From the NCBI GenBank assembly GCA_963804955.1, contig CAWDSQ010000014.1, forward strand, positions 192,001 through 256,000: a stretch of 64,000 nucleotides of DNA, given 5' to 3'. Position 1 is the first letter of the stretch. Every line of letters begins with the position of its first letter. A program made the position numbers and the translations under genes. The notes below the pieces were generated by a model. That model was given only the letters and a program-made list of their open reading frames with translations, had not been told where the DNA came from and did no database searches. Source of the stretch: an uncultured delta proteobacterium (GTDB lineage Bacteria > Desulfobacterota > WTBG01 > CAIYCZ01 > CAIRTM01). Shown one piece after another: positions 1 through 33,462 of this stretch.

Positions 1-180
1 GTGGGAATACCGCTCCGGCCGGATCGAAATGGTGCACATGGGCGGGTCCGAACAGACCGTGCCGGTCCAGGCGATGGTGATAATGTTCCAGCCTGTCTGC
101 TGCGTGCCGCAGCTGACCATCACGGCGGGCGCGGGATAAATCATGGTGCCGGGCTTCCAGACGACTTTCTTATTCTTCAT
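1..180 (-). CDS. Flavin reductase family protein, 5' part (runs off the window)
   Basis: Manual translation from ATG at 180: MKNKKVVWKPGTMIYPAPAVMVSCG...NIITIAWTGTVCSDPPMCTISIRPERYSH, a typical flavin-reductase N-terminus; not in ORF track. Confidence 0.85.
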   Translation of the reverse strand, partial: MKNKKVVWKPGTMIYPAPAVMVSCGTQQTGWNIITIAWTGTVCSDPPMCTISIRPERYSH

Positions 181-11501: not shown

Positions 11502-14500
11502 ATGAATGAGTTCAATACGATTAAAGAAACATTTGACAAGATTTACGGCTCATTGCCAATTCCCATCTTTCTGTTTGACGAAAAAGCAAAGCTGGTAAAT
11601 GCAAACCAGGCATTCCTTGCTCTCTCAAAGGCAAGCGCATCTGACCTTTCGAGCCTTTCCGTCTCTTCTTTTTTTGAGGTGCTAAAAACATACCGTTTCC
11701 CGGTTCCAGACCGCTATGTCACGGAGCTTACCAGTTTAAGCGGCGAGGTTATTCCGGTTGAACTCAATTATACAAAATTTATTGGGGCTGACGATTATGC
11801 CAAGGGCTGCATTGTTTTTTTAACTGATTTGCGGGAAAAAAATAAACTGCAGGAACATATACATCAATTATCTATTGAAATGGACGCCCTTAACATTCAA
11901 CTTGCAGGGGAAGAACCGGATCGGGCGCTGCTGGAGAGAAAGAAACTTGAACAGCAGCTAAAAGATGAAAAAGCATTTCTTGAAAATATTCTTGAATCCT
12001 GTGGCGATGGAATAATAATTTTTGATGGCAAGGGAACAATAACTCGCGTAAACGAGGCCTTTACTAAAATTACAGGAAAAGAAAAAAATGAAATAAAAGG
12101 AAATTTTAGTTCTTTGGGTCCTTACGAAGGAACATTTAAATCAACCACCGGTGAAATGATTATCCTGGAGCAGTCTTATCGTGAATATATCTACTCCCAA
12201 GTCGAGACATTCATTAAGCTTAAAGACGGTGAAAAAATTGAGAACTGGGAACTCTATGTTTTTAATAAGAAGGGCGAAGTTGTCCCTTTGGATGCTACAG
12301 CAACTGTGCAACGAAACGCTTCAGGCCTCATGACAGGCTCGGTTTGTGTCTTGCGGGACAGCACTGAAAGGAAAAAAGCGGAGAGAGCCATTAGTGAGGC
12401 GTATCAGTTTCGCAGTCAGTTTTTTACTAATATTACCCATGAATTTCGCACTCCGCTCACACTGGTACTCGGGCCTATCGAGGAAATTCTGCGTGGTGCC
12501 TTAGGGACAATCAATAAATCAATTTCAGGACAGCTCACCGTTGCCATGATGAATGCCAGACGATTGCTGAAATTGATCAACCAGCTGCTTGATTTCAGCA
12601 TGCTGGAGTCAGGAGCTAAAAATATAGTTTTTGAAAAAAAGGATCTGAAAAAATTTACGGCTGCAATACTTGATTCTTTTGCGATTGTTGCAAAAAAGAA
12701 ACATATCAAACTTAATTTTAATGCTGAGCCTGATATTCCTCCTGTCCCTATCGATTCAGGCAAAATGGAGAAAATTCTTTTTAATCTTATCGGAAACGCT
12801 TTCAAGTTTACACCTGCAAGGGGCTCTATCAACGTTACTATTATAAATCAGGTTGGATTCAGGCCTGGGACAGACTGGAATGAAATGGTTGCGAATGACT
12901 CCAATATACGAAGTGCAGTTCCGGAAGGCAATTGTGCAAAAATATCAATTCATGATACCGGCATCGGCATAAAAGAAGAAGATTTGACAAAAATATTTGA
13001 TCGCTTCAATCAGGGCAGTCTCTCTTACAATCATAGACAGGCAGGAGCAGGTATCGGCCTTGCCTATGCTAAGGAGTTGACAGAGTTTATGGGCGGGCAC
13101 ATCACCGTTAAAAGTCGGTATGGGAAAGGGTCTACTTTTTCAATATATCTTCCCATGGATAAACCGTTCATTAATAAAGAAATTGATACGCTGACATCTA
13201 CCGAGGAATTGTCATTGCAGGCTGCTGTAGAGCTTTCTGATATTTATCAGGGAGAAGACAGCATGCCGGATTGTGTCAGCGGTACCAAGCCCCTTATTTT
13301 TATCGTTGATGATAATCCGGATGTTCGCCAGTATATCTCGGGTATTATAATAAAGGACTATGATTTCATAACTGCAAGCAATGGCAAAGAAGCTTTGCAA
13401 AAGCTTGAGACACATCTCCCGGATGTCATTCTGTGCGATATTATGATGCCCGAGCTTGATGGCCATGAGTTATTAAAGCGCGTTAAAGCAACGCCCGGCC
13501 TGCAGGAAATACCCTTTATATTTTTGACTTCCCGGGCAGAAACCACCATGAAGATCGAAGGTCTTGAAAAAGGTGCGGATGATTACATTGTAAAACCCTT
13601 CAACTCTCTTGAGCTCCTTGCGAGGATCAAATCGCTTTTACGAATCAGGGATTTGCTCCGTAATGCTGAGGTACAGGAAAAGCGAATAGATATCCTCACC
13701 CAGAAGCTTCAAAAGAAATATAACTATGGAAACATTATCGGCAGCGCTCCCTCAATGCGAAAGATTTATCAGCTCATCGAGGCAATAAAAGACAGTGATT
13801 CAAATGTGCTCATTACGGGGGAGACCGGCACAGGCAAAGAGCTTGTTGCCAATGCAATCCATTACAACAGTCTGCGGAAAAATGGTCCCCTGGTATCGGT
13901 AAACTGTGGAGCAATTCCGAAAGAATTGATGGAGCGTGAGTTTTTTGGTCATGTAAAAGGGGCCTATACTGGCGCCGCTGATTCTCGCAACGGATATTTT
14001 GCAGAGGCGGACAAGGGAACCCTGTTTCTCGATGAGATTGGAGAATTGGACAAAGACTTGCAAGTGAAATTGCTGCGGGTGTTGGAACGGGGAGAAATGA
14101 TGAGAGTCGGTGATTCCAAGCCAATCAAAATTGATGTTCGTCTCATTGCTGCTACAAACAAAAATTTACTTGCCGAAGGGCAAAAGGGCGCTTTCAGAGA
14201 AGACTTGTATTACCGAATTCATGTAATACCCATACACCTTCCGCCGCTCAGGCATCGTACAGAAGATATACCAATGCTGATCGACCACTTTCTGAATAAT
14301 TTACAGGAAAGATTAAAAAAAGAGATGCCGAAAGTTACAGAAAAAGAATTGACGCTCTTTATGAACTATTCATACCCCGGCAATGTACGTGAACTGGAAA
14401 ACATCATGGAAAGATTTTTTCTGCTGGGCGGTGATGTTTCAAATCTCTTTAATGAGCACTCAGCTGATGCGGATTTGTTCCCTGAAAAGGGGACATATGA

Positions 14501-14693
14501 TGAACTTTTTTCTGCTTCAGACCCCTTGAAAACAGCTGTTCAAAAAGCAAAAGAGCACATTGAAAAAAATATTATTTTTTACACATTAAAAATCTGCAAT
14601 AATAATTATGTACAATCAGCAAAGAAGTTAAAAATAAGCCGTGCGTATCTTTATGAAAAAGTAAAGAAGTATAGAGACGCTAAAGAACAGTAG
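11502..14693 (+). CDS. Cytoplasmic hybrid PAS-PAS-HisKA-HATPase-REC-sigma54 AAA+-HTH regulator
   Basis: THEFRTPL H-box, NLIGNAFKF, DTGIGI, GAGIGL; receiver VDDN...CDIMMP; GETGTGKE, GAYTGA, LFLDEIGEL, YPGNVREL; C-terminal HTH; no TM helix seen. Confidence 0.92.
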   Translation: MNEFNTIKETFDKIYGSLPIPIFLFDEKAKLVNANQAFLALSKASASDLSSLSVSSFFEVLKTYRFPVPDRYVTELTSLSGEVIPVELNYTKFIGADDYAKGCIVFLTDLREKNKLQEHIHQLSIEMDALNIQLAGEEPDRALLERKKLEQQLKDEKAFLENILESCGDGIIIFDGKGTITRVNEAFTKITGKEKNEIKGNFSSLGPYEGTFKSTTGEMIILEQSYREYIYSQVETFIKLKDGEKIENWELYVFNKKGEVVPLDATATVQRNASGLMTGSVCVLRDSTERKKAERAISEAYQFRSQFFTNITHEFRTPLTLVLGPIEEILRGALGTINKSISGQLTVAMMNARRLLKLINQLLDFSMLESGAKNIVFEKKDLKKFTAAILDSFAIVAKKKHIKLNFNAEPDIPPVPIDSGKMEKILFNLIGNAFKFTPARGSINVTIINQVGFRPGTDWNEMVANDSNIRSAVPEGNCAKISIHDTGIGIKEEDLTKIFDRFNQGSLSYNHRQAGAGIGLAYAKELTEFMGGHITVKSRYGKGSTFSIYLPMDKPFINKEIDTLTSTEELSLQAAVELSDIYQGEDSMPDCVSGTKPLIFIVDDNPDVRQYISGIIIKDYDFITASNGKEALQKLETHLPDVILCDIMMPELDGHELLKRVKATPGLQEIPFIFLTSRAETTMKIEGLEKGADDYIVKPFNSLELLARIKSLLRIRDLLRNAEVQEKRIDILTQKLQKKYNYGNIIGSAPSMRKIYQLIEAIKDSDSNVLITGETGTGKELVANAIHYNSLRKNGPLVSVNCGAIPKELMEREFFGHVKGAYTGAADSRNGYFAEADKGTLFLDEIGELDKDLQVKLLRVLERGEMMRVGDSKPIKIDVRLIAATNKNLLAEGQKGAFREDLYYRIHVIPIHLPPLRHRTEDIPMLIDHFLNNLQERLKKEMPKVTEKELTLFMNYSYPGNVRELENIMERFFLLGGDVSNLFNEHSADADLFPEKGTYDELFSASDPLKTAVQKAKEHIEKNIIFYTLKICNNNYVQSAKKLKISRAYLYEKVKKYRDAKEQ

Positions 14694-17037: not shown

Positions 17038-17430
17038 ATGAAAAAAGATCAATCAATCATCGAACGTCATATGGAGCAACTGCTCTTTGATATCAAGCGT
17101 GGTTTTTTACAGTTTGTTGTGCTTTCGCTAATAGCGCAAGGACCAAAATACGCCTATGAAATAAAGCACCAGGTATATCAGGTCACCGGCGGTGCTTTTG
17201 ATATCGATCTTAATAATTTATATAAAAAATTAAGGTCTCTTGAGAAGGAGAAGATTTTAAAAAGCTCTGAAAAACCTTCGGTCCAGGGGGCAAACAGAAA
17301 GTATTACTCGCTTACTACTTACGGAAATAAATTTTTTAGTGAAGTTTTGACACGGATGAAGCCTGTCATTGGTTTATTTTATGGCAGAATGCAAAACATT
17401 TTATCGGACACAACTGAAGGAACAAAATGA
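17038..17430 (+). CDS. PadR family transcriptional regulator
   Basis: RGFLQFVVLSLIAQGPKYAYEI, LYKKLRSLEKE, RKYYSLT. Confidence 0.9.
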   Translation: MKKDQSIIERHMEQLLFDIKRGFLQFVVLSLIAQGPKYAYEIKHQVYQVTGGAFDIDLNNLYKKLRSLEKEKILKSSEKPSVQGANRKYYSLTTYGNKFFSEVLTRMKPVIGLFYGRMQNILSDTTEGTK

Positions 17431-18311: not shown

Positions 18312-20699
18312 GTGAAAAAATTTGCTGAATTTATTGTTCGTAAGCGCTTCCTGATTATAGTCATTATCGGTATTGTCACCGGTTTTTTCATGTATGAGCT
18401 TACCAATCTTTCGGTAAAAACAATCTTGTCCGATCTGCTGCCCCAGAACCACACCTACATAAAAGTCCATAATAAAATCAGGAGTATTTTTGGCGGTTCC
18501 AATCAGGTCCTCATTATGGTCCAGGTTCGAACGGGTGATATTTTCAATCAGGATACGCTCTCTAAGATCCAATGGATAACCCGCGAGCTTGAAAAAATAC
18601 CCGGAGCTGATCCCTACAAAATAAGCTCCATTGCCGTATCAAAAATGAAGACCTTTAAATATACCTCGGGAACCATGCAGATTGATCCGCTTATGTACCC
18701 CGACATTCCGGGCAATGAGCGGGAAATGGATACACTGCGCGATAATATATACAGCAATCCACGGTACTACGGGCAATATGTATCCTATGACAGTAAAAAG
18801 AGCCTTATCATGGTGGATTTTCTTGAAGAGGATATCAACTACCGTACGGTGTTCAATGAGCTCAGTCGTATCAGGCAGCATACCGAGGATGGAAATCATC
18901 TCGTCAGCATTGCCGGCGAGCCTATGCATATGGGCTATATTGACCAGCTTATGAGCCAGGTTATGTTTGTGCTCGGCATAACGGTTTTCTGCATCATCAT
19001 AGTGTTATTTATATACTATAGAAACATACGGGCAGCGGTCCTCCCGGTATTGTCTGCTGCAATCAGCGCTGTATGGGGATTGGGCTTTATGGCCCTTGCA
19101 GGATTCAACCTCGATCCCCTTATTCTGGTTTTGCCATTTCTCATTTCACTTATGGCCGCACGCCATTCCATGCAGTGCTTAAGCCGTTATCTGGAAGAGT
19201 ATGCGCACGTTCAAAATACGCAGACTGCGGCAGTAACGACGATTGCAAGCATGTTTTTGCCGGGCCTTACAAGTATTATTACCGATGCCCTGGGCATTGC
19301 CCTGGTTGCTGTTGCGGTCATACCGGTGTATACCAACATTGCCATTGCATGCAGTTTCTGGTTCATTGCAACAGTTATTGTATCCGTGATTTTTACTCCG
19401 CTTACTCTATCATTCATTCCGGAAACAGAACGGCTCAGGAAGTATATGAGGAGAGTGCTGACTCGGGAACGTCAGGACTTTCGTGACAGATTTCTCGGCT
19501 GGCTTGGAGGCTGGCTACCCCGGCGGGGGAAATGGTATGTTGTTGCGGTTACCGTAGCAACGACTATCATAGGACTTTATTACGCTCAGCAGATAACCAT
19601 TGGGGATTTTATGCCCGGGTCTTCCATCTTATGGCCTTTTCATCGATACAACAAAGATGCATTCAGAATTACATTCAGCATGCCTTTGCTCAATCCTCTT
19701 TATATTATTCTGGAGAGCGACGGGGGGGGATTTGATGATGAAAAAGGCGGCGGATTTGTTACACAGGCTTCAACGCTCAGGGAGATGAACAGGTTTACAC
19801 GGTATATGATGCAGCATGACCGCGTGATGTTTGGCATGTCAATAGTCAGTACTGTTCCAAGATATTTAATGTCAACCTATGAGGATGATCCCCAGTGCTT
19901 TCATCTCCCCCGGGAAGATGAAGCCCTTCATTTTATTACCCGCCGTCTTCTGCACTCAGGTGAGCCCGGCACCTGGGATAAGTATGTGGACACGGAAGAA
20001 ACCTATGCAAATATAGTAGTCTATTGCCGCGATAAAATGCCGAAAACCATTGAAAGCGTGTTTCAGCACATACAGGACTATATAGCCAAAAATCCCGGTC
20101 CGCCGGGAGGAAAGTACCGGTTAGCCGGCGGCGCTGTCGGGGTACAGGCTGCAGTTCGCGAAGTCATTGCGGATTCCCAGCTATTGATTCTCATTCTTGC
20201 ATTGACAGGGGTGTGGCTGTTCAGTGCGCTTGAATTCAAGTCAATCACTGCAGGGCTTATACTTACCATACCTCTTGCCATTTCCAATGTCCTTACGTTT
20301 GCCCTCATGGCTGCCTACCAGATAGGTCTCACGGTTAATACCTTTCCGGTTGCTTCCGTAGGCATTGGGCTGGGGGTGGATTATGGCATCTATTTTGTAG
20401 GCCGGCTGATAGAAGAGAAAGAAAAAGGAGGGACACTGACCGAAGCGATATACAGGGCAATAACCACCAACGGCAAATCTATTATTCAGATAGCAACAAC
20501 TCTTACGCTCGGACTTGTTTTGTGGGCATTTTCACCTTTAAAATTCCAGGCAGAGATGGGCATTCTGCTGGCTATTCTTTTATTCCTGAATATGCTCGGG
20601 GCTCTTTTTCTTGTGCCGGCGCTTATCTGCATTCTTAAACCAAAATTTCTAACTACTATTTATCCTCCTCCTCAGACGCAGGAAAAGCAATGTGCATAA
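18312..20699 (+). CDS. MMPL/RND family transporter
   Basis: Duplicated 1+5 TM architecture with large periplasmic loops, FGGSNQV, GLGVDYGIY. Confidence 0.9.
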   Translation: MKKFAEFIVRKRFLIIVIIGIVTGFFMYELTNLSVKTILSDLLPQNHTYIKVHNKIRSIFGGSNQVLIMVQVRTGDIFNQDTLSKIQWITRELEKIPGADPYKISSIAVSKMKTFKYTSGTMQIDPLMYPDIPGNEREMDTLRDNIYSNPRYYGQYVSYDSKKSLIMVDFLEEDINYRTVFNELSRIRQHTEDGNHLVSIAGEPMHMGYIDQLMSQVMFVLGITVFCIIIVLFIYYRNIRAAVLPVLSAAISAVWGLGFMALAGFNLDPLILVLPFLISLMAARHSMQCLSRYLEEYAHVQNTQTAAVTTIASMFLPGLTSIITDALGIALVAVAVIPVYTNIAIACSFWFIATVIVSVIFTPLTLSFIPETERLRKYMRRVLTRERQDFRDRFLGWLGGWLPRRGKWYVVAVTVATTIIGLYYAQQITIGDFMPGSSILWPFHRYNKDAFRITFSMPLLNPLYIILESDGGGFDDEKGGGFVTQASTLREMNRFTRYMMQHDRVMFGMSIVSTVPRYLMSTYEDDPQCFHLPREDEALHFITRRLLHSGEPGTWDKYVDTEETYANIVVYCRDKMPKTIESVFQHIQDYIAKNPGPPGGKYRLAGGAVGVQAAVREVIADSQLLILILALTGVWLFSALEFKSITAGLILTIPLAISNVLTFALMAAYQIGLTVNTFPVASVGIGLGVDYGIYFVGRLIEEKEKGGTLTEAIYRAITTNGKSIIQIATTLTLGLVLWAFSPLKFQAEMGILLAILLFLNMLGALFLVPALICILKPKFLTTIYPPPQTQEKQCA

Positions 20700-20772
20700 C
20701 AGGAGATATCGCTGAGCGACAGTTGATTTACCAGCATATGCAAAACAAACAATAAGGTAAGGGGGACTTCCT

Positions 20773-22386
20773 ATGAAAAAAAAAGTTTTTATTATGGGTG
20801 TCATCGCAGGGATGCTGGTAATCTTTTCTGTGCTGCCCCGGAGGTGCGCTGCTACTCTATTCTTTTTGAATGAGGACCTCAGGGTAAAGGGGAGCCTGTA
20901 TGAATTCATGATTTACCGAACAAAATTCAACCCGGATGAACACTACTACCGGGATACCAGATTTGGTCTTATGCGTACTAAAGGCACCCTTGAGCTGTTG
21001 TATAAAGCGGTTGAGAATGACAAGCTTCAAGTAAATCTATTCGGGTTTTTTCAGTACTGGCGGGAAGCAGTACCTGACTTTGATGATGAGTACCGTCACA
21101 GTATAGCATCGGATAGCAGAAAAGGATATCAGGGGCCTTTCTTTGATCAGGATGACTGGATCAATGAGGCTTATGCGGATATTTACTCTGGACCATGGAA
21201 CATTCGCCTCGGGAAACAGATCGTGTTCTGGAGCGAGGTAGAGATGGTGCGAACCATTGATCGTATCAATCCCCTTGATTTGCGCTATACCACCCCCGGA
21301 ATTGACCCGTGGGACGAAATGAAGCTTGGGCTGTGGATGATGCGTGGCTTCTATAATTCTACTCTGCCGGGTCAGCTTGTTTTCGAAGGGATATGGATTC
21401 CGGGTGATTTTGAGGCGGTCAGGACTCCCACCGACGGCACCAGCATGGCCGGTGGCGTTGTTAAACCTCAGGGGCCTAAGGGCAGCTGGCCCAGGCCATT
21501 CGGCCAGAAAGCATTATCCGACCTTTTGTTTGAGCGGTCAAAACCGGCTTGGACCCTCAGCAATTCATCCTGGGCTTTAAGAGTCAGGGGCAATTCACCG
21601 GTCAGCCTTTTCAGAGAGGATTATCTGCTTGACTGGACAGTGAGCTGGTTTCACGGTATGGACACCAGTCCCGTCGCCCGCACCAGCACCCTCGGTGAAC
21701 CCAGCGTAACCAATCTAAACCCTAAAACCCTGAATGGCCTTATGGGCAGGAATGCGGTGAGCCGTGTCTTCGGTCTGAAGCTCCCGCAGGCGCCGCATTA
21801 CAGGCTTTTCAACTACAAATTTTTTGATGCACTCGGGGCAAGCTGTCAAAGCTTCGTACCGGCATTAGATTCGGTTGTGCGCGGGGAGTTCTCTTATGAA
21901 ATCGGCGTTCCCATCAACACAACATTTCCAAAGAGCGTTGAACCATCGGGCGACTTCATAACCGGCAACTCCGAACGTAACCAGGTGAATGTCGGTATTA
22001 CTATTGATAAACCCGTTATCATCCCGTGGTTCCAGGAACGCGGGTGGGCCGCATTTGATTGTTCGTTCGGCTGGAGTGCGCAACGGCGGCTCGGCGATGT
22101 CAGTCGCAGATGGTCATCGTTTGGCTGGGGGGACCGGTCCCAGAACAATTTTTCGGTACTGATTAAAGGCAAATTTTATCATGAAGAGATGCGGCCGGTA
22201 ATGCGTTTTTTTTACAATACCCGCAACTGGGGCTACGGCGTTCTAGCCTGTCAGTATGCGCCTGGAGAACATATGCGCTATGAAGGAGGATATATGTGGC
22301 TTTTTGCCAAGGATCCGAGCGATTCAAGTGAAGCCTCAAGCGAAAACGGTGATTTGCTCTATTTACGTATCGGGTACGAGTTTTAA
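20773..22386 (+). CDS. DUF1302-like outer-membrane beta-barrel protein
   Basis: Signal peptide, INEAYAD..RLGKQIVFWSE..IDRINPLD motif, C-terminal LRIGYEF barrel signature. Confidence 0.75.
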   Translation: MKKKVFIMGVIAGMLVIFSVLPRRCAATLFFLNEDLRVKGSLYEFMIYRTKFNPDEHYYRDTRFGLMRTKGTLELLYKAVENDKLQVNLFGFFQYWREAVPDFDDEYRHSIASDSRKGYQGPFFDQDDWINEAYADIYSGPWNIRLGKQIVFWSEVEMVRTIDRINPLDLRYTTPGIDPWDEMKLGLWMMRGFYNSTLPGQLVFEGIWIPGDFEAVRTPTDGTSMAGGVVKPQGPKGSWPRPFGQKALSDLLFERSKPAWTLSNSSWALRVRGNSPVSLFREDYLLDWTVSWFHGMDTSPVARTSTLGEPSVTNLNPKTLNGLMGRNAVSRVFGLKLPQAPHYRLFNYKFFDALGASCQSFVPALDSVVRGEFSYEIGVPINTTFPKSVEPSGDFITGNSERNQVNVGITIDKPVIIPWFQERGWAAFDCSFGWSAQRRLGDVSRRWSSFGWGDRSQNNFSVLIKGKFYHEEMRPVMRFFYNTRNWGYGVLACQYAPGEHMRYEGGYMWLFAKDPSDSSEASSENGDLLYLRIGYEF

Positions 22387-22421
22387 CCGCACACAACATA
22401 TCCACAGCTAAGGAGGATAGT

Positions 22422-23687
22422 ATGAAAAAAGTTTTCACAGGAATGATTATTTTATTTCTATTCTGGTGTATCAGTCTTACACCGGGTTTTGCCGGGGAAG
22501 TAAATTTTCCAACCCGCAGCTATGAAGGTGAAGAGCTTGCAAAAGTGCGCGAGTGGGAAAAGACCTGGGCCGGCAAAAAAGTATCTACTGAAAATATTGA
22601 TCAGGTCAATGAATTTCTTCATGAAGCTGTAGTAAAAGTCCTCAAAAATCCTAAGGGGTTCGGTGCGGAGTCTTTGTGGTTCACTATTGCGCCGTATCGG
22701 CCATATGCAGTCTCCTCCGGCATGATTGCCGCCACAAAAAAATGTGCGCCTGCAAGCAAGCTTGATAACGAAGATATGCTGGCAGGGTATAGCGATGTTG
22801 CCGGAATCCCCTTTCCACAGCCAAAATCAGGCCTTGAGATGGCATGGAATTTTGCAGGCAATTCCAAAGGTGACAGTCACCGGGAAAAAAATATCGGAGA
22901 TGTTGTTAACTGCGGGCAAAAAACCGAGCGGCATGCAGAAATGACCCGCTCGGAGCTGTACTGGATCGGAAGAGTAGATTCCGATCCGCGCCCCCGCATC
23001 CCTGCACAAGAAAACCCGAGGGGCATAGCACGATCATGGTTTCAGCGCAATCAAGCCCCGGTTGATTTTATTGACATGTCAGTACTTGAACTTAAATATA
23101 TTGACCATAAAAAGCAGGAAGATCTATGGGTCTACACACCGATGTTCAGAAGGATCAGGCGTTATACGGCAAGCCAGCGTACTGACTCAATTGATGGCAC
23201 CGATATGATCTATGACGATCAGGACGGATGGTACACCCATCTTACCGGCAACACCTATGATTTTAAAGGCCGGGCGGATCTTCTTGTTGCACGGCATCAG
23301 GATGCCGGTCAACTCCAGAGGGTCAAAGGCCAGGCTTTCTGGAACGGTATACAGCGCGAACGGGTTAATCACTGGGTCGTTGAAGTTAAAAGCAAGGAGC
23401 CGGGATATGTGTACAGCAGACAAATATGGTATCTGGACCCGGAGAACTGGCAGATGAACTTCAAGGTAATGTACAATCGCAAGGGTGAACTCTGGAAACT
23501 GTATGAACTGTTTTATGATGAGCATGCTACCGCATGTGGTGAAAAAACCTCGATATTTACTGCCGAGCAGTCGCTTGATGTGATTCGCCAACACGGCAGC
23601 CCCAATATCCGTGAAGTGACGGACGTGGGAGCATATATACGGCCTGATTTTTTTCAGACACAGAGCCTTAACCAAAAATCGTATTAA
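22422..23687 (+). CDS. DUF1329 domain (LolA-like lipoprotein-sorting fold) periplasmic protein
   Basis: Signal peptide, GIPFPQPKSGLEMAWN, WVYTPMFRRIRR, YNRKGELWK. Confidence 0.85.
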   Translation: MKKVFTGMIILFLFWCISLTPGFAGEVNFPTRSYEGEELAKVREWEKTWAGKKVSTENIDQVNEFLHEAVVKVLKNPKGFGAESLWFTIAPYRPYAVSSGMIAATKKCAPASKLDNEDMLAGYSDVAGIPFPQPKSGLEMAWNFAGNSKGDSHREKNIGDVVNCGQKTERHAEMTRSELYWIGRVDSDPRPRIPAQENPRGIARSWFQRNQAPVDFIDMSVLELKYIDHKKQEDLWVYTPMFRRIRRYTASQRTDSIDGTDMIYDDQDGWYTHLTGNTYDFKGRADLLVARHQDAGQLQRVKGQAFWNGIQRERVNHWVVEVKSKEPGYVYSRQIWYLDPENWQMNFKVMYNRKGELWKLYELFYDEHATACGEKTSIFTAEQSLDVIRQHGSPNIREVTDVGAYIRPDFFQTQSLNQKSY

Positions 23688-23726
23688 ACAAACAATGAGC
23701 AGTCAAAGCTATTGTCGAAGGTTATC

Positions 23727-24785
23727 ATGGTGAGAAAAATACAAATAAAAATGTTTCTTATACCGACTGTGCTTGTCCTGGTTTTAGGCTGTGACAGGTT
23801 TGACCGTTCCAAGATACAAATGCCGGCCTTCAACTTTGTCACGAGGGAAAATCTGCACAGCATTGCCCGGGTTGATAAACAGCATATCTGGGTGAGCGGT
23901 AATTACGGGACTATACTGTACAGCGCCGATGGCGGAAAGACATGGGAAAAGCAGGTCAGCGGCATCGCCGAGGAGCTGCTGGGATGCATATCGTTTGTTA
24001 ACCCTCAAGAGGGCTGGGCTGCCGGCGTCAGGGGAACAATTGTTCATACGGCTGACGGAGGAAAAACCTGGGCAGTGCAGCCAAGCGGTATTGAACAGGA
24101 TATCCATGATATCTTTTTCCTGGACACGCACTATGGCTGGGCTGTTGGCGAGAGCGGAACAGTTTTGCATACGGACGACGGGGGCAGGCGCTGGAAACGA
24201 CAGAGAGAGCCTGAAGACAAATACTTTAATGATGTTTTTTTTGTTGATAGAAAAACGGGATGGATCGCCGGCGAATTCGGAACAATCCTGCATACTGCCG
24301 ACGGGGGGTTAACATGGCAGCCACAAGAGTGTTCTGACCTTGCTGCTGTTTTCAAAGATGCCGAATGGGATAGGCCGCTGCCGGCGTTGTACGGAATGTG
24401 TTTTATTGATGAAAACCGGGGATGGATCGTCGGGATGGATGGTGTCATCCTGAGGACGGAAAATGGCGGAAAGATATGGTCACTGGAAAAGCCTGTTTCC
24501 GACAAGCCCCTGTACTCTATTATAATGCGTGGCGCACAAGGATGGGCGGTTGGAAACGATGGTTTTTATTTGATGACCGAGAATGGCGGTGATACATGGT
24601 CGGTAAAAGACCAGGCTCTAAAAACCAGATTTTGGCTGCGGGCGGTGTCCTTTCAAGATGATAAGCGAGGGCTTATTGTGGGCGCCCAGGGAACCATTGC
24701 GCTTACTGATGATGGAGGCTTTTCCTGGAAGCTCATATCAGGCTACAGCTACGATATGAAAGAATTCGGGCTGGCCGATTTCTAA
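23727..24785 (+). CDS. YCF48-like/BNR-repeat beta-propeller lipoprotein
   Basis: Lipobox VLGC; repeated GW.VG..GTILHT.DGG.TW motifs. Confidence 0.9.
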   Translation: MVRKIQIKMFLIPTVLVLVLGCDRFDRSKIQMPAFNFVTRENLHSIARVDKQHIWVSGNYGTILYSADGGKTWEKQVSGIAEELLGCISFVNPQEGWAAGVRGTIVHTADGGKTWAVQPSGIEQDIHDIFFLDTHYGWAVGESGTVLHTDDGGRRWKRQREPEDKYFNDVFFVDRKTGWIAGEFGTILHTADGGLTWQPQECSDLAAVFKDAEWDRPLPALYGMCFIDENRGWIVGMDGVILRTENGGKIWSLEKPVSDKPLYSIIMRGAQGWAVGNDGFYLMTENGGDTWSVKDQALKTRFWLRAVSFQDDKRGLIVGAQGTIALTDDGGFSWKLISGYSYDMKEFGLADF

Positions 24786-24817
24786 AGTTAATGTCCGTTA
24801 TTTTGAAGGAGCATGTT

Positions 24818-26614
24818 ATGAACAGACTAAAGGTGAACAAGCTAATCTGTATTATTCCCTTGGCTGTTTTTCTTCTGCTGGGTTCATGGTCTTGCGGGTT
24901 TCGCAAGGAGAAAATCGGGGTACTGTATGTGCTCCACGGCGGCATGGAGACCAATAATTCTCAAGGCATGTGGGATGCCGTGGTGCAGCAGTTTTCCTAT
25001 GACCATAATCATGCCATTTATCAATTCGTTATCTGGGATCCTGCACAGTGGCCAGCTGTTTTGGATCGTACAGCAACCGATTTTGCAAGGCGGTTTCTGA
25101 TAATGTATGAGTTTGGATATGAGCGCATGGGGGGCACCGATCCTTATCCTGACATCAGTGATAAGCAGTTGGCGCAATTGAAGGCTGAACTGAAAAAAAA
25201 TACTTGCGGCCTGGACATAAAATTTGAAGTCGACTGGGTTGGTTATTTAAGCGCAGACGATGTTGCGCATTACCCGTATCCCCGTTATATTTATAATATC
25301 CCCGATAATACTACCGGGTATCCGCCCGTCTCCGGAGTGTCCAAATGCACCTACTGCGGGGAGGGAGATCCGGACGGCCCCTGGAAGAAATGTGATCCTG
25401 AGCGCTACAATACAGACGGGCCGGTAGAGAGGCTGCTTAAAAAGGGGGTCACAAGTATCATTATGGTTGATACGACTACCGGCGGGGTTCGCTTTTCAAA
25501 AACCTTTGATGTGGTCCAAATGACCAAGCGGGCTCTCAATAAATGGAACCTGGAACACGATACCTCTATTCCCCTGATGTGGGTCAATGACCCCAATAAT
25601 TTAATGGAGCGCTCATATCCAACAAAACCCGAAGGATGGACACGCAGCAAAAAAGCTCCTGAGGTAGACCCGAAGTTTTCTTTGGAGGGTAATCCCAATC
25701 CTGTTGTGGAAGATCCACTGCTGGCTCAATTGCACGTTGAAGGTATAGAAAAGGCCTTTTTCGATTCGGTTCCTGATAATGCTACCGGTGTCATTCTTTT
25801 TAACCATCCAATACACGATTATAATGAGTATTTTGACCCAAAAATTAATGATACCCTTATCGTAAATAAAAATATTAAGGCCTTGCTTATTGAGCGGAAT
25901 CCTGACCTTGAGCCCGCGCATATCATAGGAGCCTATGGAGGGATCCTGGAAATAAATCCGGTTACTGGCCGTGAGGAACGGACCCGGGAAATGCGCGGAG
26001 AAACCTATGGTGCTGCATGGCTTTACGAGAGCGGCAAGCAAATGCCTGGTGAAGAGTGGGGCTACCGGTACTGGGATGCTTTAGAATATTTAAAGAACCG
26101 TGGTGTTAAGCACATTGTTATTGGGTTTCCTCAGATGATTACCGACAACAATTTAAACCTTATTGAAGTGCCGAATCAGTTTGCCAAGGAGATCGGTGTA
26201 AAAACATGGGCGAAATATAAACTGGGGGATTATACTTTGTACCCGGAAGTCGGTCATCCATTTGCAGACTACTGGGGAGTCTGGGTTGATACACAGTGCG
26301 GGCAGGAGGAATGCTGCTTTGAAATGGGCGGCTGCAGCGATGGCCGGGCATACCCACCGCCACGACAGGCACCAATCGATGCATCCCGCGGAGACTTGGA
26401 CCCCTCCCTTGCCTTTGACGGGAGCGCCTACGGGCAGCTGGGGTTTGATGTAACCGGGGACAGCGGATTGCCGGATCCTGAAAAACCAGTACAAGATCAG
26501 TACACCGGCACCTGGGATTTATACAGAGCGGCAAATGCCGACCCCCGGCTGGCAAAGCTGCTGGCGCGCCATGTATTGGATGCAGCTCTTAAAACGCTCC
26601 CACAGGAGGAGTAG
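24818..26614 (+). CDS. Exported lipoprotein with ferrochelatase (class II chelatase)-like fold, function unknown
   Basis: Signal ending LGSWSC; KIGVLYVLHGG, YERMGGTDPY, LLKKGVTSII, ILFNHPIH, DALEYLKNRGVKHIVIGFP..TD occur in HemH order. Confidence 0.65.
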   Translation: MNRLKVNKLICIIPLAVFLLLGSWSCGFRKEKIGVLYVLHGGMETNNSQGMWDAVVQQFSYDHNHAIYQFVIWDPAQWPAVLDRTATDFARRFLIMYEFGYERMGGTDPYPDISDKQLAQLKAELKKNTCGLDIKFEVDWVGYLSADDVAHYPYPRYIYNIPDNTTGYPPVSGVSKCTYCGEGDPDGPWKKCDPERYNTDGPVERLLKKGVTSIIMVDTTTGGVRFSKTFDVVQMTKRALNKWNLEHDTSIPLMWVNDPNNLMERSYPTKPEGWTRSKKAPEVDPKFSLEGNPNPVVEDPLLAQLHVEGIEKAFFDSVPDNATGVILFNHPIHDYNEYFDPKINDTLIVNKNIKALLIERNPDLEPAHIIGAYGGILEINPVTGREERTREMRGETYGAAWLYESGKQMPGEEWGYRYWDALEYLKNRGVKHIVIGFPQMITDNNLNLIEVPNQFAKEIGVKTWAKYKLGDYTLYPEVGHPFADYWGVWVDTQCGQEECCFEMGGCSDGRAYPPPRQAPIDASRGDLDPSLAFDGSAYGQLGFDVTGDSGLPDPEKPVQDQYTGTWDLYRAANADPRLAKLLARHVLDAALKTLPQEE

Positions 26615-26656: not shown

Positions 26657-27364
26657 ATGCAAGCAATTCCCTATTATGAACGCATGATGGAACATCTGGC
26701 AAATTTTAATCTGTCTCCCATGAAAGAATATAACGGAGATGATATCACACAGTTTGAATACATTAAGACGGACATGATGACGCAACATCTTCGGGCATAT
26801 AAGGCCGACAAGTTGGACAAAATTGTCACGCTTACCACCGATATCATGGATGGTAAAATATTTGTTTATGGAACCACAATTGTTCCAACAGATGAATATC
26901 CTCTGCCTATTTTTACCTCTGAAATAGTTCCAGCGGTAAACCATCTCAGCTTGCGGGTTGATTTTATTCCCCTTGCAGATTGTGCACGTGACCTTGATTA
27001 TATGGAAAAATACATGATGCCCATGGAAGACCTGTGGGAAAAACACAGACCGATAGAAGGCTCAGGCATTGAGCGCTATACCTGGCAGCGGGTTATGCTT
27101 TCGCCTTTTTATTCGTATGGAAAATATAAATATACTATTGAAAATATCGAGGAAACGGCAATGCAGATTACTATTGACTATTTGAAACTCTATATAAAAC
27201 TCTGGTCCGGAGTGCAAAAGGCGGATCCCGGCTATATGAAGTTGCTCAATGAAAGAAAGAGAGTAATGCTGAATACCATGATGGAGAATGACCCGGGTGA
27301 AGGACCTCTGACAAAAGGCTTTGGCAAAGAAACAGCTCACAAAATTCTTTCACTTCTTTTTTAA
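26657..27364 (+). CDS. Ferredoxin-dependent bilin reductase / RCC reductase-like protein
   Basis: PTDEYPLPIF.SEIV, RVDFIPL...DYMEKY, LSPF, DYLKLY..LW, NDPGEGPLTKGFGKE; ~235 aa as for FDBRs. Confidence 0.7.
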   Translation: MQAIPYYERMMEHLANFNLSPMKEYNGDDITQFEYIKTDMMTQHLRAYKADKLDKIVTLTTDIMDGKIFVYGTTIVPTDEYPLPIFTSEIVPAVNHLSLRVDFIPLADCARDLDYMEKYMMPMEDLWEKHRPIEGSGIERYTWQRVMLSPFYSYGKYKYTIENIEETAMQITIDYLKLYIKLWSGVQKADPGYMKLLNERKRVMLNTMMENDPGEGPLTKGFGKETAHKILSLLF

Positions 27365-27427: not shown

Positions 27428-27883
27428 ATGAAAAAAGTAATTTTGTTACTATCTTTCGTGCTCTTTCTTTATGCATACCCCGGTTTTGCCGGCGAACAAA
27501 CCCCAGCACGTGGGGTAGTTGAAGCAACCGGTGTTGACCTTAAACAACAGGTTGTCAGGATACGCGGATATGAAGGTGTTTCACCCCTTAACCTTTTTAT
27601 AGAACCGGGAACGGTGGTTATTTGGCTCAACCAGTATCAAGGGCCGATAAAAATAACCTTCCTTTCAAAAAAGGTAACACTTGCATGTAAGAGCCCGGTT
27701 AATTTCTTTATTAATGAGCAGGGAGTCTTTGAATCAAGCGTTGTCGGGTTTGGCGCGGTTGCCAGTCTTTGTATGGTTGAATGCGGATCATTTGACTATG
27801 TAATAGAGCGATCACCGGCTGATGCCTCTGCAAGATCAGAGGGTTTCAGGTTTGAAGGAAGGATTGTCGTTAAGAAAAAATAG
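27428..27883 (+). CDS. Secreted cupredoxin-like protein
   Basis: Signal peptide; P.NLFIEPGTVVIWLN and terminal FEGRIVVK strands; no His ligands. Confidence 0.55.
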   Translation: MKKVILLLSFVLFLYAYPGFAGEQTPARGVVEATGVDLKQQVVRIRGYEGVSPLNLFIEPGTVVIWLNQYQGPIKITFLSKKVTLACKSPVNFFINEQGVFESSVVGFGAVASLCMVECGSFDYVIERSPADASARSEGFRFEGRIVVKKK

Positions 27884-27897
27884 ATGGAGAATCCTGT

Positions 27898-28440
27898 ATG
27901 ACAACTCATGAAATAACACCGGAAGAAAGAAAAAAGATAGTGGATGAGGCGCTTATAAAGATGAAGATAAAAAGAAAAAACCTCTCCCGCGAAGAACTTG
28001 AAAAAGAAATCATTGATTATCTCAGTAAAAAACAGCCCTGCAGTTTGGCGACCTGCGGCAACGACTGCACCCCCCGCATATCGGTAGTAGACTACGTCAA
28101 TGAGGGTCTTACCATCTATATTCTCAGCGAAGGCGGGGATAAATTCAAAAATCTTGCAGAGAACAAAAAAGTTGCCATTGGAATCGGTACCGGTGCCAAG
28201 GCTTTGAAAACAAGAGGTGTCAATATCCGGGGTATTGCCGAAGTCATTAGCGATGATGCACCCGGGTTTGCCCATGGTATAAAAGTCATGCAGCCTGTAT
28301 TGGATGACATGGCAGAGGCATTGGGGTGCCCTTTTAAGTTACCCAAGGGAATACTCAGGCTGATCAAAGTCACTCCAACTAAAATAGTTTACCATCATAC
28401 AATGCGGGGGGTTAAGCATGCTGTTTGGGAAGCATACTAG
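27898..28440 (+). CDS. Pyridoxamine 5'-phosphate oxidase-like (split beta-barrel FMN/heme-binding) protein
   Basis: CSLATC...PRISVVDY, KFKNLAENKKVAI, GVNIRGIAE, LIKVTPTKI. Confidence 0.85.
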   Translation: MTTHEITPEERKKIVDEALIKMKIKRKNLSREELEKEIIDYLSKKQPCSLATCGNDCTPRISVVDYVNEGLTIYILSEGGDKFKNLAENKKVAIGIGTGAKALKTRGVNIRGIAEVISDDAPGFAHGIKVMQPVLDDMAEALGCPFKLPKGILRLIKVTPTKIVYHHTMRGVKHAVWEAY

Positions 28441-28598: not shown

Positions 28599-29459
28599 AT
28601 GGCAGATAAGTTCGCTGACGTGCGTATTGTCGATAACTTTTACCAGACATCCAGTTTTTTCCCTATGCCGGTTGTTCTTGTGAGCACTCTGGCTGAATCA
28701 GGGCAAACCAACCTGGGACCCTACTCACTGTGTTTTCCTCATTATGTCACCGGAGGAAAAGATCATGCCATGATGCTTATTGCCCGCGGCACAAGCAATA
28801 CGGCCATGAATATAATACGCACCAGGGTATGTGCCCTTAATTTTATTCCGCATACAAAGAAATTCATGAAAAACTGCGTTATGCTGGGTTATCCGGGCGA
28901 AACCACTGAGGAAAAGATGAAAAACAGTATTTTTACCCTGATGCCATCTCTCAGACAAGAACAACAAAAACCCGGGCACTGGCCTGATATTGTTAAGGAA
29001 GCTGTTCAAATCTTTGAATGCACCTGGGATGACAGCTATCCTTTAAAGCCGCGCGAGGATTTAGTAGAATCCCATTTCCTGCTTCGTATTGATAAAATTG
29101 TCATGAAGGAGAAATGGAAAGATTGCCTGCTTAAAGGTAAAGGTTTCCCCCGTTTGCCGATTGATTATGGATACCGGGATAATGTTCGATTTTGGTTTGC
29201 TCGACAATCGAGGCCGTATGCGGTTCCCATTCCAAAAGAAAAAGGCAACAAAATTGAAACGGTGAAGTATGCCTGTGTCCGGTTTGACCCGAATATCGCC
29301 TGGCAGGATGAAGCCTGCGCAAAAATAGTGAAAGTGCCGAGCATATTTTTAAATAAAGTTATCAGTGGTGTTGTGAAAGCAGCAAAAGAGCAAGGGGTTA
29401 CGGTTATTACCCCCGAGTTTATGGACAAAATTCGAGATAAGCGCTCAAATCAAAAATAG
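28599..29459 (+). CDS. Flavin reductase-like protein with C-terminal PCP_red (BchB/ChlB C-terminal) domain
   Basis: FPMPVVLVST...NLGPYSL, TAMNI...LNF, FECT; C-terminal WQDEACAKIVKVPSIFLNKVISGVVKAAKEQGVTVITPEFM. Confidence 0.75.
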   Translation: MADKFADVRIVDNFYQTSSFFPMPVVLVSTLAESGQTNLGPYSLCFPHYVTGGKDHAMMLIARGTSNTAMNIIRTRVCALNFIPHTKKFMKNCVMLGYPGETTEEKMKNSIFTLMPSLRQEQQKPGHWPDIVKEAVQIFECTWDDSYPLKPREDLVESHFLLRIDKIVMKEKWKDCLLKGKGFPRLPIDYGYRDNVRFWFARQSRPYAVPIPKEKGNKIETVKYACVRFDPNIAWQDEACAKIVKVPSIFLNKVISGVVKAAKEQGVTVITPEFMDKIRDKRSNQK

Positions 29460-29699: not shown

Positions 29700-31118
29700 A
29701 TGGAAGTCCAGAGTGAAATTAAAAAAGATGTAAAAAAGTTTGCAGGCATAGAAATTCCGCCGGATCTAACCAGGTCGAATTTTTTCTTTCTGTATGTAAA
29801 CACCGTTCTCATGGGTTTGTTAATGGCTGTTTCTGCCATCATCCAGCCGGCATTTTTAAGTGATATTGTTAAAATTAAACAGGATTTCGCCGGCTCCATA
29901 AATGGACTGCTGCAGAATATGAGCCAGATTGCCACCTTTGCGTTTGTGGCCATCATCGGGGTTTTGTCAGATAAACTGGGGCGAAAAATACTGGCATTTT
30001 CGGGATTCATAGTTGTTGCATTTTTTACCTTTCTCATGAGCCAGTCCAATAGCATTGCTTCGTTTCTGAATATTCCTGCCGAATTTTCCTCCCAGATATG
30101 CGCACTGCTCAGCTTTTTCCCGGGCAGGGCTGCTGAATTCACTGATTTCGCTCCCGGGTTGCTCTGCACCTATATCACCCGTTTTGTAATCGGCATCGGT
30201 CTTGTCCTTGCCTATCCTCAGTTTATTACCATGGTGGCTGACTATACCTATGAGAAGGACCGCGGCAAAGGCATGGCAATGAACGGAGCCAGTATGGGCA
30301 TTGCAGCGCTGCTGGTCTTTGTAATTCTCGCTCCAATCCAGAAAAAGGCTGGGGTTCTAAATCTCATGTATATTATTTCAGGAGTTGCAATTGCAGGTGC
30401 AATTTGCACGGGGGTATTTCTGAGAGATAGGATACAGGAATCAAAGCTAAAAAAAATCGGGTTTTTTAATATAATTCCGATGGTACGAAAAAGCCTGCCG
30501 ATTAAAACAAGTTATCTGTGTGCGCTGGTGACCAGGGCTGATATTATGGTTCTCACCGCATTTTTAGTGACTTGGGCTGTTAAATATGGCCAGCAGGTCA
30601 AAATGGCTTCAAACGACGCAACTATGAAATCAGCTATTCCAATGATAATCATGGGTGTTTTTTCATTGATTGCTTTTCCAATAGTCGGCATCATGATTGA
30701 CAAATGGGGCAGAATACAGATAATCATACTTGCTCTTTTTAGCAGCGCATTTGGGATGACTCTTCTCGCTTTGTCTCCTAATCCATTCAGTAGTGTCGTG
30801 TATTTTGCGGTCATATTTATTGCAATTGGCATGGCTGGATCTATAGCAGGAGCCAATGCTTTGGCAGCAGATAATTCCCCCCCGGGTATGGTGGGATCAA
30901 TTCTGGGAGGTCTTAATACCATGCAGCCAGTTGGAGTATTGTTTTTCCTTGGGCTTGGCGGATATTTATTTGACGTGTTTGGACCTGGATGGGCTTTTGG
31001 GCTGAAAGGTGCTGCAAGCTTGATGCTTGGCATATGGGTATTTGCTGTAAGGGGCAACCTTATGGGGGAGCTGCGGCAGGCACCCGGCCATTACCCCCCC
31101 CCCCCCCCGAGCAAATAG
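29700..31118 (+). CDS. MFS transporter
   Basis: ~12 TM, GVLSDKLGRK and GIMIDKWGR MFS motifs, RGKGMA. Confidence 0.92.
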   Translation: MEVQSEIKKDVKKFAGIEIPPDLTRSNFFFLYVNTVLMGLLMAVSAIIQPAFLSDIVKIKQDFAGSINGLLQNMSQIATFAFVAIIGVLSDKLGRKILAFSGFIVVAFFTFLMSQSNSIASFLNIPAEFSSQICALLSFFPGRAAEFTDFAPGLLCTYITRFVIGIGLVLAYPQFITMVADYTYEKDRGKGMAMNGASMGIAALLVFVILAPIQKKAGVLNLMYIISGVAIAGAICTGVFLRDRIQESKLKKIGFFNIIPMVRKSLPIKTSYLCALVTRADIMVLTAFLVTWAVKYGQQVKMASNDATMKSAIPMIIMGVFSLIAFPIVGIMIDKWGRIQIIILALFSSAFGMTLLALSPNPFSSVVYFAVIFIAIGMAGSIAGANALAADNSPPGMVGSILGGLNTMQPVGVLFFLGLGGYLFDVFGPGWAFGLKGAASLMLGIWVFAVRGNLMGELRQAPGHYPPPPPSK

Positions 31119-33403: not shown

Positions 33404-33462
33404 GGCATGACTCCTTTTAACGTTATGATTGCGTAATATTTGAACATCTGCCGCATATCTTG

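Follow-up and report, generated by a model that had tools for sequence, protein, structure and literature searches.

In textbooks, ferrochelatases are enzymes of the cytoplasm. Exported chelatases of class II are known as well; those considered here are small CbiK-type proteins that are linked to iron uptake and whose role is debated. One of them is the periplasmic CbiK(P) of Desulfovibrio vulgaris, which we take to be a haem-binding protein. Another, IhtB/FetB of Porphyromonas gingivalis, is described in excerpts of PMC12094164 as an outer-membrane haem-binding lipoprotein for which a reverse ferrochelatase role is proposed and unproven. In the literature on periplasmic or secreted ferrochelatase-like proteins, no exported HemH-type family appears in titles or in the opening parts of abstracts. 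The present study concerns a candidate for such a family, represented by a + strand gene (the target) in a 64,000-nucleotide stretch (the window) of contig CAWDSQ010000014.1 from an uncultured delta proteobacterium (assembly GCA_963804955.1). A sequence-only reading of the gene had proposed an exported ferrochelatase-like lipoprotein with an altered active site that either removes metal from tetrapyrroles or captures them. The target family is best explained as a descendant of ferrochelatase (class II chelatase fold) whose catalytic apparatus has been lost. What is new is a large HemH-type family, exported by prediction, whose catalytic Glu is gone, which has acquired a second active-site His, and which travels with genes having a ferredoxin-dependent bilin reductase (FDBR) fold in bacteria not labelled as phototrophs.

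Predicted fold of the target protein

An AlphaFold2 model of the target was built from a 30-sequence alignment; residues are numbered throughout on the 607-residue translation from the upstream ATG at 24791. The model has a mean predicted local distance difference test (pLDDT) score of 73.6 and a predicted template modelling score of 0.80. Core strands and helices score above 80, and four segments (residues 174-182, 341-346, 398-418 and 544-570) score below 50. The predicted structure has the HemH-type fold of class II chelatases, with its two lobes. In a Foldseek search of the Protein Data Bank (PDB), 44 matches have E<=0.001, and all 40 listed are ferrochelatases/CpfC. The best match, human ferrochelatase, has an E-value of 3.2e-9 and a template modelling (TM) score of 0.65 on the matched chain, and the first row that is not a ferrochelatase is SirB (E 8.5e-3). 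VIA-align, run independently of Foldseek against 48,161 representative chains, gives Z scores of 24.2 for Bacillus subtilis CpfC (root-mean-square deviation 3.0, 303/311 residues), 21.7 for yeast ferrochelatase, 16.2 for SirB, 15.3 for the periplasmic CbiK(P) of D. vulgaris, 15.1 for P. gingivalis FetB, 14.1 for CbiK, 12.3 for CbiX and at most 9.9 for unrelated sugar-binding proteins. The chelatase fold claimed by the sequence-only reading, for which AlphaFold and Foldseek had been named as the check, is borne out by the model, with ferrochelatases ranked first and no sign of the missing fold that was to count against it. Its likening of the protein to exported class II chelatases such as CbiK-P also stands, in that CbiK(P) and FetB are among the structural matches and rank below the ferrochelatases.

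Active-site residues

A profile of the target family was aligned by hhalign with a reference profile of 12 canonical ferrochelatases from genomes of the same phylum (E 5.6e-5, 284 columns, query 41-470 against template 1-293). The alignment pairs KIGVLYVLHGG with KTAVVLLNMGGP and thereby places H49 on human M76, whose B. subtilis equivalent is presumably Y13. Further along, YERMGGTDPY (Y110 to D117 and P) is paired with YEKIGGGSPL, VILFNHPIHD with LIFSAHGIPV, placing H339 on the catalytic His, and GVKHIVIGFPQMITDNNLNLIE with GTKNLLMVPISFVSDHSETLYE. In the same alignment, D452, N453, L455 and E459 fall on human D340, H341, E343 and E347. The paired blocks are exactly those that had been picked out by eye as HemH-like, in the right order.

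The catalytic His that is invariant in ferrochelatases is present in the target, and the π-helix Glu with its His partner (human E343/H341) is absent. As had been noted from the target alone, the conserved His is retained, with H339 found in 128/128 relatives, and the Glu of the DHLE-type motif is replaced, with position 455 occupied by Leu in 123/128 relatives and by Glu in none. Position 453 is Ser or Asn. H49 is found in 123/123 relatives in which the position is present, and H441 in 127/128. Among 24 gamma- and alphaproteobacterial copies, H49 and H339 are each kept in 23, L455 in 21 and the Cys residues in 23; H74 and Y110 are not kept in these copies.

Passages of PMC9133952 on human ferrochelatase report that all H263 variants are inactive, that E343 and H341 form a hydrogen-bond network for proton abstraction, and that the top of the pocket holds M76, across from H263. 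The same source describes E343D as impaired and E343K as inactive and co-purifying with protoporphyrin. Because E343K is inactive yet co-purifies with protoporphyrin, loss of the Glu is compatible with a protein that holds a porphyrin and does not turn it over. The target family retains the His that faces the pyrrole nitrogens, without the catalytic pair and with a potential second axial ligand on the opposite side.

Insertions and conserved cysteines

Relative to ferrochelatase, the target contains four insertions that amount to ~290 extra residues. The last helix of the target (residues 585-599) falls inside the model range 38..603 that is aligned to CpfC chain residues 2..312, and in the model it is probably the equivalent of the last CpfC helix. 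Insertions 1 and 4 carry cysteines with the spacings C186-x2-C189-x11-C201 and C503-x4-C508-C509-x5-C515. These are conserved in 127/127 (C189), 126/127 (C201), 127/128 (C509), 127/127 (C515), 122/128 (C508), 119/128 (C503) and 75/128 (C186) relatives. The two Cys-rich inserts seen in the sequence-only reading are real, and every Cys except C186 is conserved in at least 119 of the 127-128 relatives. The cysteines fall into short local pairs (189/201, 503/508 and 509/515), and the sequences that lack C508 also lack C503 (6/6). The conserved cysteines may form disulfide loops of an exported protein. A [2Fe-2S] cluster like that of human ferrochelatase was considered and is judged unlikely, because the signal is of the Sec type without a twin-arginine motif and the Cys pairs are local.

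Gene start and export signal

The open reading frame spans 24791..26614 on the + strand (607 codons), corresponding to 598 residues from the ATG at 24818, and the stop codon of the upstream BNR gene lies at 24783-24785. ATG 24818 is the likely start, because a Shine-Dalgarno sequence stands 6 nt before it and the nearest homologues begin MN(R/K)... at the matching position. The stretch 24818-26614 (+) is a real gene.

Residues 10-35 of the target comprise a basic n-region and a hydrophobic core followed by ...LLLGSWSC35, and no twin-arginine motif is read in this signal region. A hydrophobic N-terminus ahead of the first strand is present in 109/128 relatives, where it mostly ends in Cys and in some cases in an AxA-type site. 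Export was judged by sequence rules alone, for the target and for its 128 relatives, and these indicate that the target is probably Sec-exported and lipid-anchored, in agreement with the lipoprotein-type signal noted earlier. In place of the cytoplasmic or matrix-side location that is a trait of ferrochelatases, the target has the lipobox-like Cys35 signal; like CbiK(P) and IhtB/FetB, the target joins the class II chelatase fold to a signal for export or lipid attachment. Some relatives also bear thrombospondin-3, dockerin or other surface-type modules.

In fifteen of the 128 relatives, the first strand is preceded by fewer than 12 residues: five are cut N-terminally, one is an apparent start miscall and nine begin with M plus 5-6 residues. 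These nine homologues (P0056, P0077, P0088, P0096, P0097, P0104, P0114, P0119 and P0120) lack a signal peptide and may be a cytoplasmic subgroup. Six of the nine have lost both C503 and C508.

Family size and sequence searches

A word-indexed search returned at least 560 homologues of the target at E<=0.001, with 49-87% identity among the 120 matches listed, so the gene is more than a chance reading frame. The relatives are nearly all unnamed, a single one being labelled 'protoheme ferro-lyase' by one source. An exhaustive phmmer search of 1.84 billion cluster representatives, a library that carries no protein names, returned 168 matches at E<=0.001. The 150 of them that are listed are full-length relatives or fragments with 36-90% identity, and the family therefore appears compact. 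Given these identities, a canonical ferrochelatase is unlikely to be among them.

The phmmer search of PDB sequences with the target returned nothing, and the family profile against the PDB placed ferrochelatases (B. subtilis-type) first at E 0.16 over 39 residues (the Y..IGG..P block). The target does not reach the gathering score of the Pfam ferrochelatase family PF00762 (27 bits), and a paralogue on contig 7 of the same genome scores 20.6 bits over model positions 37-94. With 598 residues and no Pfam match, the target also lacks the sequence of PF06180 and the ~260-residue size of CbiK-type proteins. In the ESM Atlas, the top match is an unnamed 706-member cluster (0.95), and ferrochelatase clusters come next (0.83-0.84); we use these matches as leads only. 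The target family is large, unnamed and, by prediction, mostly exported.

Genome co-occurrence with FDBR genes

The FDBR family (PF05996) is represented by the gene directly downstream of the target, which starts 43 nt past the target stop codon. In a phylum sample of 201 genomes, with family presence called at E<=1e-10, the target family occurs in six genomes, all from its own order and with 4-7 matches each, and in 0/195 others. The six carriers are the source genome of the window, 4/4 others of its family and 1/1 of the sister family in the order. PF05996 is found in exactly the same six of 201 genomes, with 6-13 matches each, and in 0/195 others. The source genome has eight FDBR-family genes above the Pfam cut-off and ten matches in all; examples lie at C22:17173-17844, C7:129019-129642 and C32:76205-76849.

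Among distant carriers of the target family (Gammaproteobacteria, Alphaproteobacteria and Spirochaetota), PF05996 is present in 7/10 (5/5 and then 2/5). When 151 genomes from the class of one distant carrier were sampled, the target family and PF05996 were both found only in that carrier (0/150 non-carriers). Altogether, 13/16 carriers tested have PF05996 (6/6 in the phylum sample and 7/10 distant). The link between the target family and FDBR genes at the genome level is strong and not obligatory. The tetrapyrrole link that had been proposed from the target sequence is supported in part, on the side of context: FDBR-fold genes lie adjacent to the target gene and co-occur with the family in genomes.

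Related loci

With a single genome scanned for each species, 192 relatives came back, from which 80 loci were kept, all from metagenome-assembled genomes or a single-amplified genome. By label, 46 loci belong to Thermodesulfobacteriota, 'delta' or unclassified bacteria, 33 to Gamma- or Alphaproteobacteria and one to Spirochaetota. A hidden Markov model built from two FDBR-like neighbour clusters detects FDBR-like genes in 19/80 loci, all among the 46, at 7 to 8,932 bp from the target homologue. The FDBR-like gene lies at most 100 bp downstream on the same strand in five of these 19 loci, and nine loci contain two or three copies.

In tblastn searches of the 80 loci with the window neighbours, matches were found for FDBR (13 loci), MFS (13), PNPOx (11), DUF1329 (8), BNR (6), PCP_red (6), the 151-aa protein (5), MMPL (5), DUF1302 (5) and the NAD-binding protein (2). 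The gene order of the window is mostly kept in two loci, L017 (69% identity) and L018 (62%), and in parts in L015 and L016. Among the genes searched, L018 lacks only those for the 151-aa protein and the NAD-binding protein, and L017 additionally lacks the PCP_red gene. Recurrent neighbours are old-yellow-enzyme-type reductases, flavoproteins of the geranylgeranyl-reductase family, alpha/beta hydrolases, amidohydrolases, TetR regulators and DUF169 proteins. In the proteobacterial loci, they are DUF4397 proteins, luciferase-like and Rieske oxygenases, DUF1838 proteins and TonB receptors.

With these neighbours, the gamma/alpha loci show an aerobic-looking version of the neighbourhood; in seven loci of this group (L044-L081), a DUF4397 gene directly follows the chelatase-fold gene with a median gap of 7 bp. 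In one related locus, a hydrolase domain in an 880-aa protein at L022:6021-8663 is Chlorophyllase/PETase-like (31 bits against a cut-off of 26). In another, a radical SAM protein like HemN, HemW and ChuW at L043:18870-20156 (~100-110 bits, below all cut-offs) is encoded 7 kb from the chelatase-fold gene.

Gene neighbourhood in the window

The features of the window are collected in Table 1. The target gene lies in a low-GC stretch at ~10.6-31.5 kb (GC 0.42-0.49 versus mostly 0.52-0.58 in the flanks), in which all genes are on the + strand and which may be an acquired island carrying the whole module. The far end of the window, from ~46 kb, also falls to GC 0.43-0.50. Around the target, exported and membrane parts come first and cytoplasmic reductases after, with the PNPOx and PCP_red genes further on from the FDBR gene.

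Table 1. Positions of the target gene, its internal features and its neighbours in the window
Feature	Position	Strand	Basis or remark
Hybrid histidine kinase / receiver / sigma-54 activator	11502..14693	+	Pfam; island head
Old-yellow-enzyme + Pyr_redox_2 reductase, 655 aa	14948..16915	+	FadH/BaiCD/bilirubin-reductase-long-form superfamily
PadR regulator	17038-17430	+	Pfam
NAD_binding_10 / NmrA-like reductase	17427-18131	+	Pfam
MMPL/HAE3 RND transporter	18312-20699	+	Pfam, NCBIfam; envelope unit 18312..24785
DUF1302 protein	20773-22386	+	Pfam; envelope unit
DUF1329/LolA-like protein	22422-23687	+	Pfam; envelope unit
Ycf48-like BNR lipoprotein	23712-24785	+	Pfam, NCBIfam; envelope unit, directly upstream of target
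Shine-Dalgarno GAAGGAG	24805..24811	+	6 nt 5' of ATG 24818; direct reading
Target: predicted exported ferrochelatase-fold protein	24818..26614	+	598 aa; 607 aa if start at 24791
Putative signal peptide, lipobox-like ...GSWS-C35 end	24818..24895	+	Cys codon 24893-24895; target sequence and N-termini of 128 relatives
H49 codon	24935..24937	+	Invariant His at human M76 position; hhalign
Insertion 1 (~residues 154-210; C186, C189, C201)	25250..25420	+	Gap versus ferrochelatase profile
Insertion 2 (~residues 265-308)	25583..25714	+	Gap versus ferrochelatase profile
H339 codon	25805..25807	+	Catalytic His equivalent (B. subtilis H183 / human H263); hhalign
Insertion 3 (~residues 383-426)	25937..26068	+	Partly low confidence, 398-418 pLDDT <50
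L455 codon	26153..26155	+	Leu for essential Glu (human E343 / B. subtilis E264); N453 for H341; hhalign
Insertion 4 (~residues 470-584; C503, C508, C509, C515)	26198..26542	+	Precedes last helix 585-599
FDBR-fold protein (ferredoxin-dependent bilin reductase)	26657..27364	+	PF05996 55.5 bits, cut-off 31; no signal peptide
Exported 151-aa protein without Pfam family	27428..27883	+	Kept in 5/80 related loci
PNPOx/split-barrel flavoprotein	27898..28440	+	Weakly like F420-dependent PPOX-class oxidoreductases and Rv2991
286-aa protein, C-terminal PCP_red (BchB C-terminus-like) domain	28599..29459	+	Below cut-off
MFS transporter	29700..31118	+	Pfam

In NCBIfam, the old-yellow-enzyme protein comes closest to bilirubin reductase long form (398 bits against a cut-off of 750) and to the bile-acid enzyme BaiCD (395 bits); the protein is placed only at the superfamily level because it lies below every curated cut-off. 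Its domain architecture recurs in six related loci. Among the island genes, Pfam detects no iron-uptake genes (Feo, TonB receptor or ABC) and no tetrapyrrole synthesis genes. In the source genome (87% complete), no canonical ferrochelatase at E<=1e-20 was found. A promoter and terminator scan of 14-32 kb gave sites no commoner than in shuffles (27 versus 30.6 and 23 versus 19.6) and for that reason says nothing on operon limits.

The source genome encodes three further target copies on contigs 7 and 11, near genes for MFS, short-chain dehydrogenase/reductase, FAD/electron-transfer flavoprotein and aldehyde:ferredoxin oxidoreductase proteins. All three paralogues (contig 7 412.9-416.9 kb and contig 11 91.9-93.7 kb) are split between frames, and one has an in-frame TGA. 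In the window, the genes for MoeA (7352-8681, + strand) and a di-haem cytochrome c peroxidase (32359-33466, - strand) likewise run over 2-3 frames. The split genes seem more likely to be assembly indels than pseudogenes, and a selenocysteine reading of the in-frame TGA was set aside because other genes of the assembly are split in the same way.

Proposed role and alternative explanations

The target is best read as an extracytoplasmic tetrapyrrole binder or hand-over protein rather than a canonical chelatase, a reading to which we give slightly less than an even chance. The ligand would be a tetrapyrrole, most likely metallated (haem or a chlorophyll-derived pigment), bound in the inter-lobe cleft and flanked by H339 on one cleft face and the family-invariant H49 on the other. 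As an extracytoplasmic receptor or hand-over protein, the target would pass its ligand to membrane transport, through either the adjacent RND/DUF1302/DUF1329/BNR unit or the MFS carrier, after which the neighbouring FDBR-fold and flavin reductases would reduce the ligand inside the cytoplasm. The gene, its modelled fold, the mapping and family-wide conservation of its residues, the gene order and the FDBR co-occurrence are results of the analysis; in this scheme we infer export, the nature of the ligand, its ligation by two His residues, the direction of transport and the disulfide bonding of the cysteines. The receptor or hand-over role is favoured because loss of the Glu in the human protein gives a dead enzyme that retains porphyrin, because a His has arisen in the family across from the catalytic one, and because its conserved partners are transporters and cytoplasmic tetrapyrrole-type reductases. 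If anything, loss of the π-helix Glu/His pair favours binding over a simple reverse ferrochelatase.

Several observations weigh against this role. MMPL/HAE3 RND transporters are known as exporters and fit uptake poorly, and no haem oxygenase that could open the ring for a bilin reductase was found in the source genome (87% complete). An FDBR gene is missing within 10 kb in 61/80 related loci, and none of the gamma/alpha-labelled loci has one nearby. The co-occurrence in the phylum amounts to about one event because the six genomes are kin, and 3/10 distant carriers, from assemblies without completeness figures and with one of just 1.3 Mb, lack PF05996. At the protein level, Pfam (E<=0.01) and NCBIfam scans of the target matched no family, the hhalign probability is only 66%, and the geometry of H49/H339 and of the cysteines is taken from the alignment and from known ferrochelatase structures. 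The nine homologues without a signal peptide suggest that the family may not be exclusively extracytoplasmic.

A wider version of the receptor role is possible and doubtful: a so far undescribed tetrapyrrole pathway that needs no oxygen would have the target as its point of entry outside the cell. Detrital tetrapyrroles (chlorophyll- or haem-derived pigments and phycobilins) would be harvested from sediments and imported, and the carriers of the pathway would be an uncultured order of Thermodesulfobacteriota together with scattered Proteobacteria and Spirochaetota. Reduced by the expanded FDBR-fold and flavin enzymes, the pigments could take up electrons as a sink or supply C, N or metal, and the 4-7 chelatase-fold and 6-13 FDBR paralogues per genome would represent expansion of the substrate range.

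The main rival to the binding role is an extracytoplasmic dechelatase that takes the Fe out of haem, or the Mg out of chlorophyll-type pigments, ahead of uptake. This was the option placed first in the sequence-only reading, and we consider it unlikely. The ferrochelatase fold, the catalytic His in 128/128 relatives and the export predicted by sequence rules would all suit such an enzyme, and the invariant H49, H441 and several Arg/Asp residues could make a new metal-handling site. FetB and CbiK(P) match the model at Z ~15, and IhtB is presented in excerpts of PMC12094164 as a haem-binding lipoprotein and putative reverse ferrochelatase. However, the π-helix Glu and His that handle protons are replaced family-wide by Leu and Asn/Ser, and by microscopic reversibility this loss hurts the reverse reaction also. 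In the human enzyme, E343D is impaired and E343K inactive (passages of PMC9133952), and the island has no iron-uptake genes of the Feo, TonB receptor or ABC kind.

Re-use of the fold for a ligand other than a tetrapyrrole, whether a metal ion, a lipid-like substrate of the RND/DUF1302/DUF1329 proteins or a solute, is improbable. Periplasmic sugar-binding proteins share the general topology at Z 7-10, but the ferrochelatase match reaches Z 24 over 303/311 residues, compared with at most 10 for the binding proteins, and the His that faces the pyrrole nitrogens and is needed by all ferrochelatases is invariant here. In the literature (10.1101/072470, 10.1101/2020.07.04.188060 and the listed entry PMC6394551), the RND unit is tied to fatty esters and Tween 20, and to monoterpenes and aromatic catabolic islands, and not to pigments; many neighbourhoods hold generic hydrolases and reductases, and three of the ten distant carriers have no FDBR genes. 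Against this, FDBR genes are found in 13/16 carriers and in 0/195 and 0/150 non-carriers.

Slightly less probable is a haemoprotein in its own right, in which H49/H339 hold b-type haem as the cofactor of electron transfer or sensing outside the cytoplasm. Two invariant His residues on opposite faces of the predicted porphyrin site would suit such a cofactor, as would the neighbourhoods rich in redox enzymes, one of which, in a related locus, contains a multihaem cytochrome with TSP3 repeats. Yet no partner oxidoreductase is conserved beside the target gene in the 80 loci, and a tetrapyrrole as cargo fits better than one as cofactor because the strongest conserved associates are cytoplasmic FDBR-fold proteins and transporters.

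The least probable explanation, a working chelatase in export-directed biosynthesis that inserts metal outside the cytoplasm while the RND pump exports pigment from FDBR-type enzymes, would agree with the exporter nature of the MMPL/HAE3 RND family, with the lack of a canonical ferrochelatase at E<=1e-20 in the source genome and with the biosynthetic role of all characterised FDBRs (excerpts of PMC10151467), but it is contradicted by the loss of the catalytic Glu/His pair, by the lack of a detected haem oxygenase to supply bilin, by the 6-13 FDBR and 4-7 target copies per genome, which look like substrate-range expansion, and by an island without tetrapyrrole synthesis genes.

Should the FDBR link be functional, the extracytoplasmic binding role offers a testable route to the turnover of chlorophyll, haem and bilin debris, a very large pool, in anoxic sediments and would explain a role of the FDBR family outside pigment synthesis. 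If true, it would also mean that nature has made a tetrapyrrole receptor out of a chelatase in the target.

Comparison with known systems

The target shares the two-lobe fold of HemH/CpfC (PF00762; PDB 9kta/1ak1 from B. subtilis, 1hrk from human and 1l8x from yeast; Z 24.2), together with the order of the sequence blocks, the first strand followed by GG, the Y..(I/M)GG..P motif and the porphyrin-facing His. In contrast to HemH/CpfC, which are cytoplasmic or located at the inner membrane, it has a Sec/lipoprotein signal and four insertions. The DHxE motif of the HemH/CpfC π-helix becomes D(S/N)xL in the target family, so that both the Glu and its His partner are gone, the Met/Tyr of the M76/Y13 site is replaced by His, and 5-6 conserved cysteines are added.

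CbiK(P) of D. vulgaris (PDB 2xvx) and IhtB/FetB of P. gingivalis (PDB 9b86) resemble the target in placing the chelatase fold outside the cytoplasm in anaerobes. They comprise ~260 residues without insertions, whereas the target is twice the size and structurally nearer to HemH/CpfC (Z 24) than to CbiK(P)/FetB (Z 15). They are linked to TonB/ABC iron uptake, and the target is linked to FDBR-fold genes.

FDBR genes in conserved clusters of heterotrophs, as seen here, are also a feature of the pre-PcyA/FDBR clusters of non-photosynthetic bacteria (Rockwell et al. 2023, PMC10151467; PMC13446030). According to these two reports, the pre-PcyA clusters combine haem oxygenase and an Fe-S protein with V4R proteins and bilin-binding globins, and the main texts of both reports, supplements aside, do not contain the words ferrochelatase or chelatase. 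The partners in the target island are instead an exported chelatase-fold protein, flavin reductases and transporters, and the pre-PcyA cluster type (haem oxygenase, V4R and globin) was rejected as a match to the target context.

The four genes directly upstream of the target form one operon-like run that corresponds to the RND/DUF1302/DUF1329/BNR (Ycf48-like) co-fit unit described in passages of 10.1101/072470. For this unit, a role in the export of a cell-envelope component or an action on fatty esters has been proposed (excerpts of 10.1101/072470 and 10.1101/2020.07.04.188060). Beyond the window, the RND unit with an appended chelatase-fold gene is confined to the closest relatives (BNR in 6/80 and MMPL in 5/80 loci).

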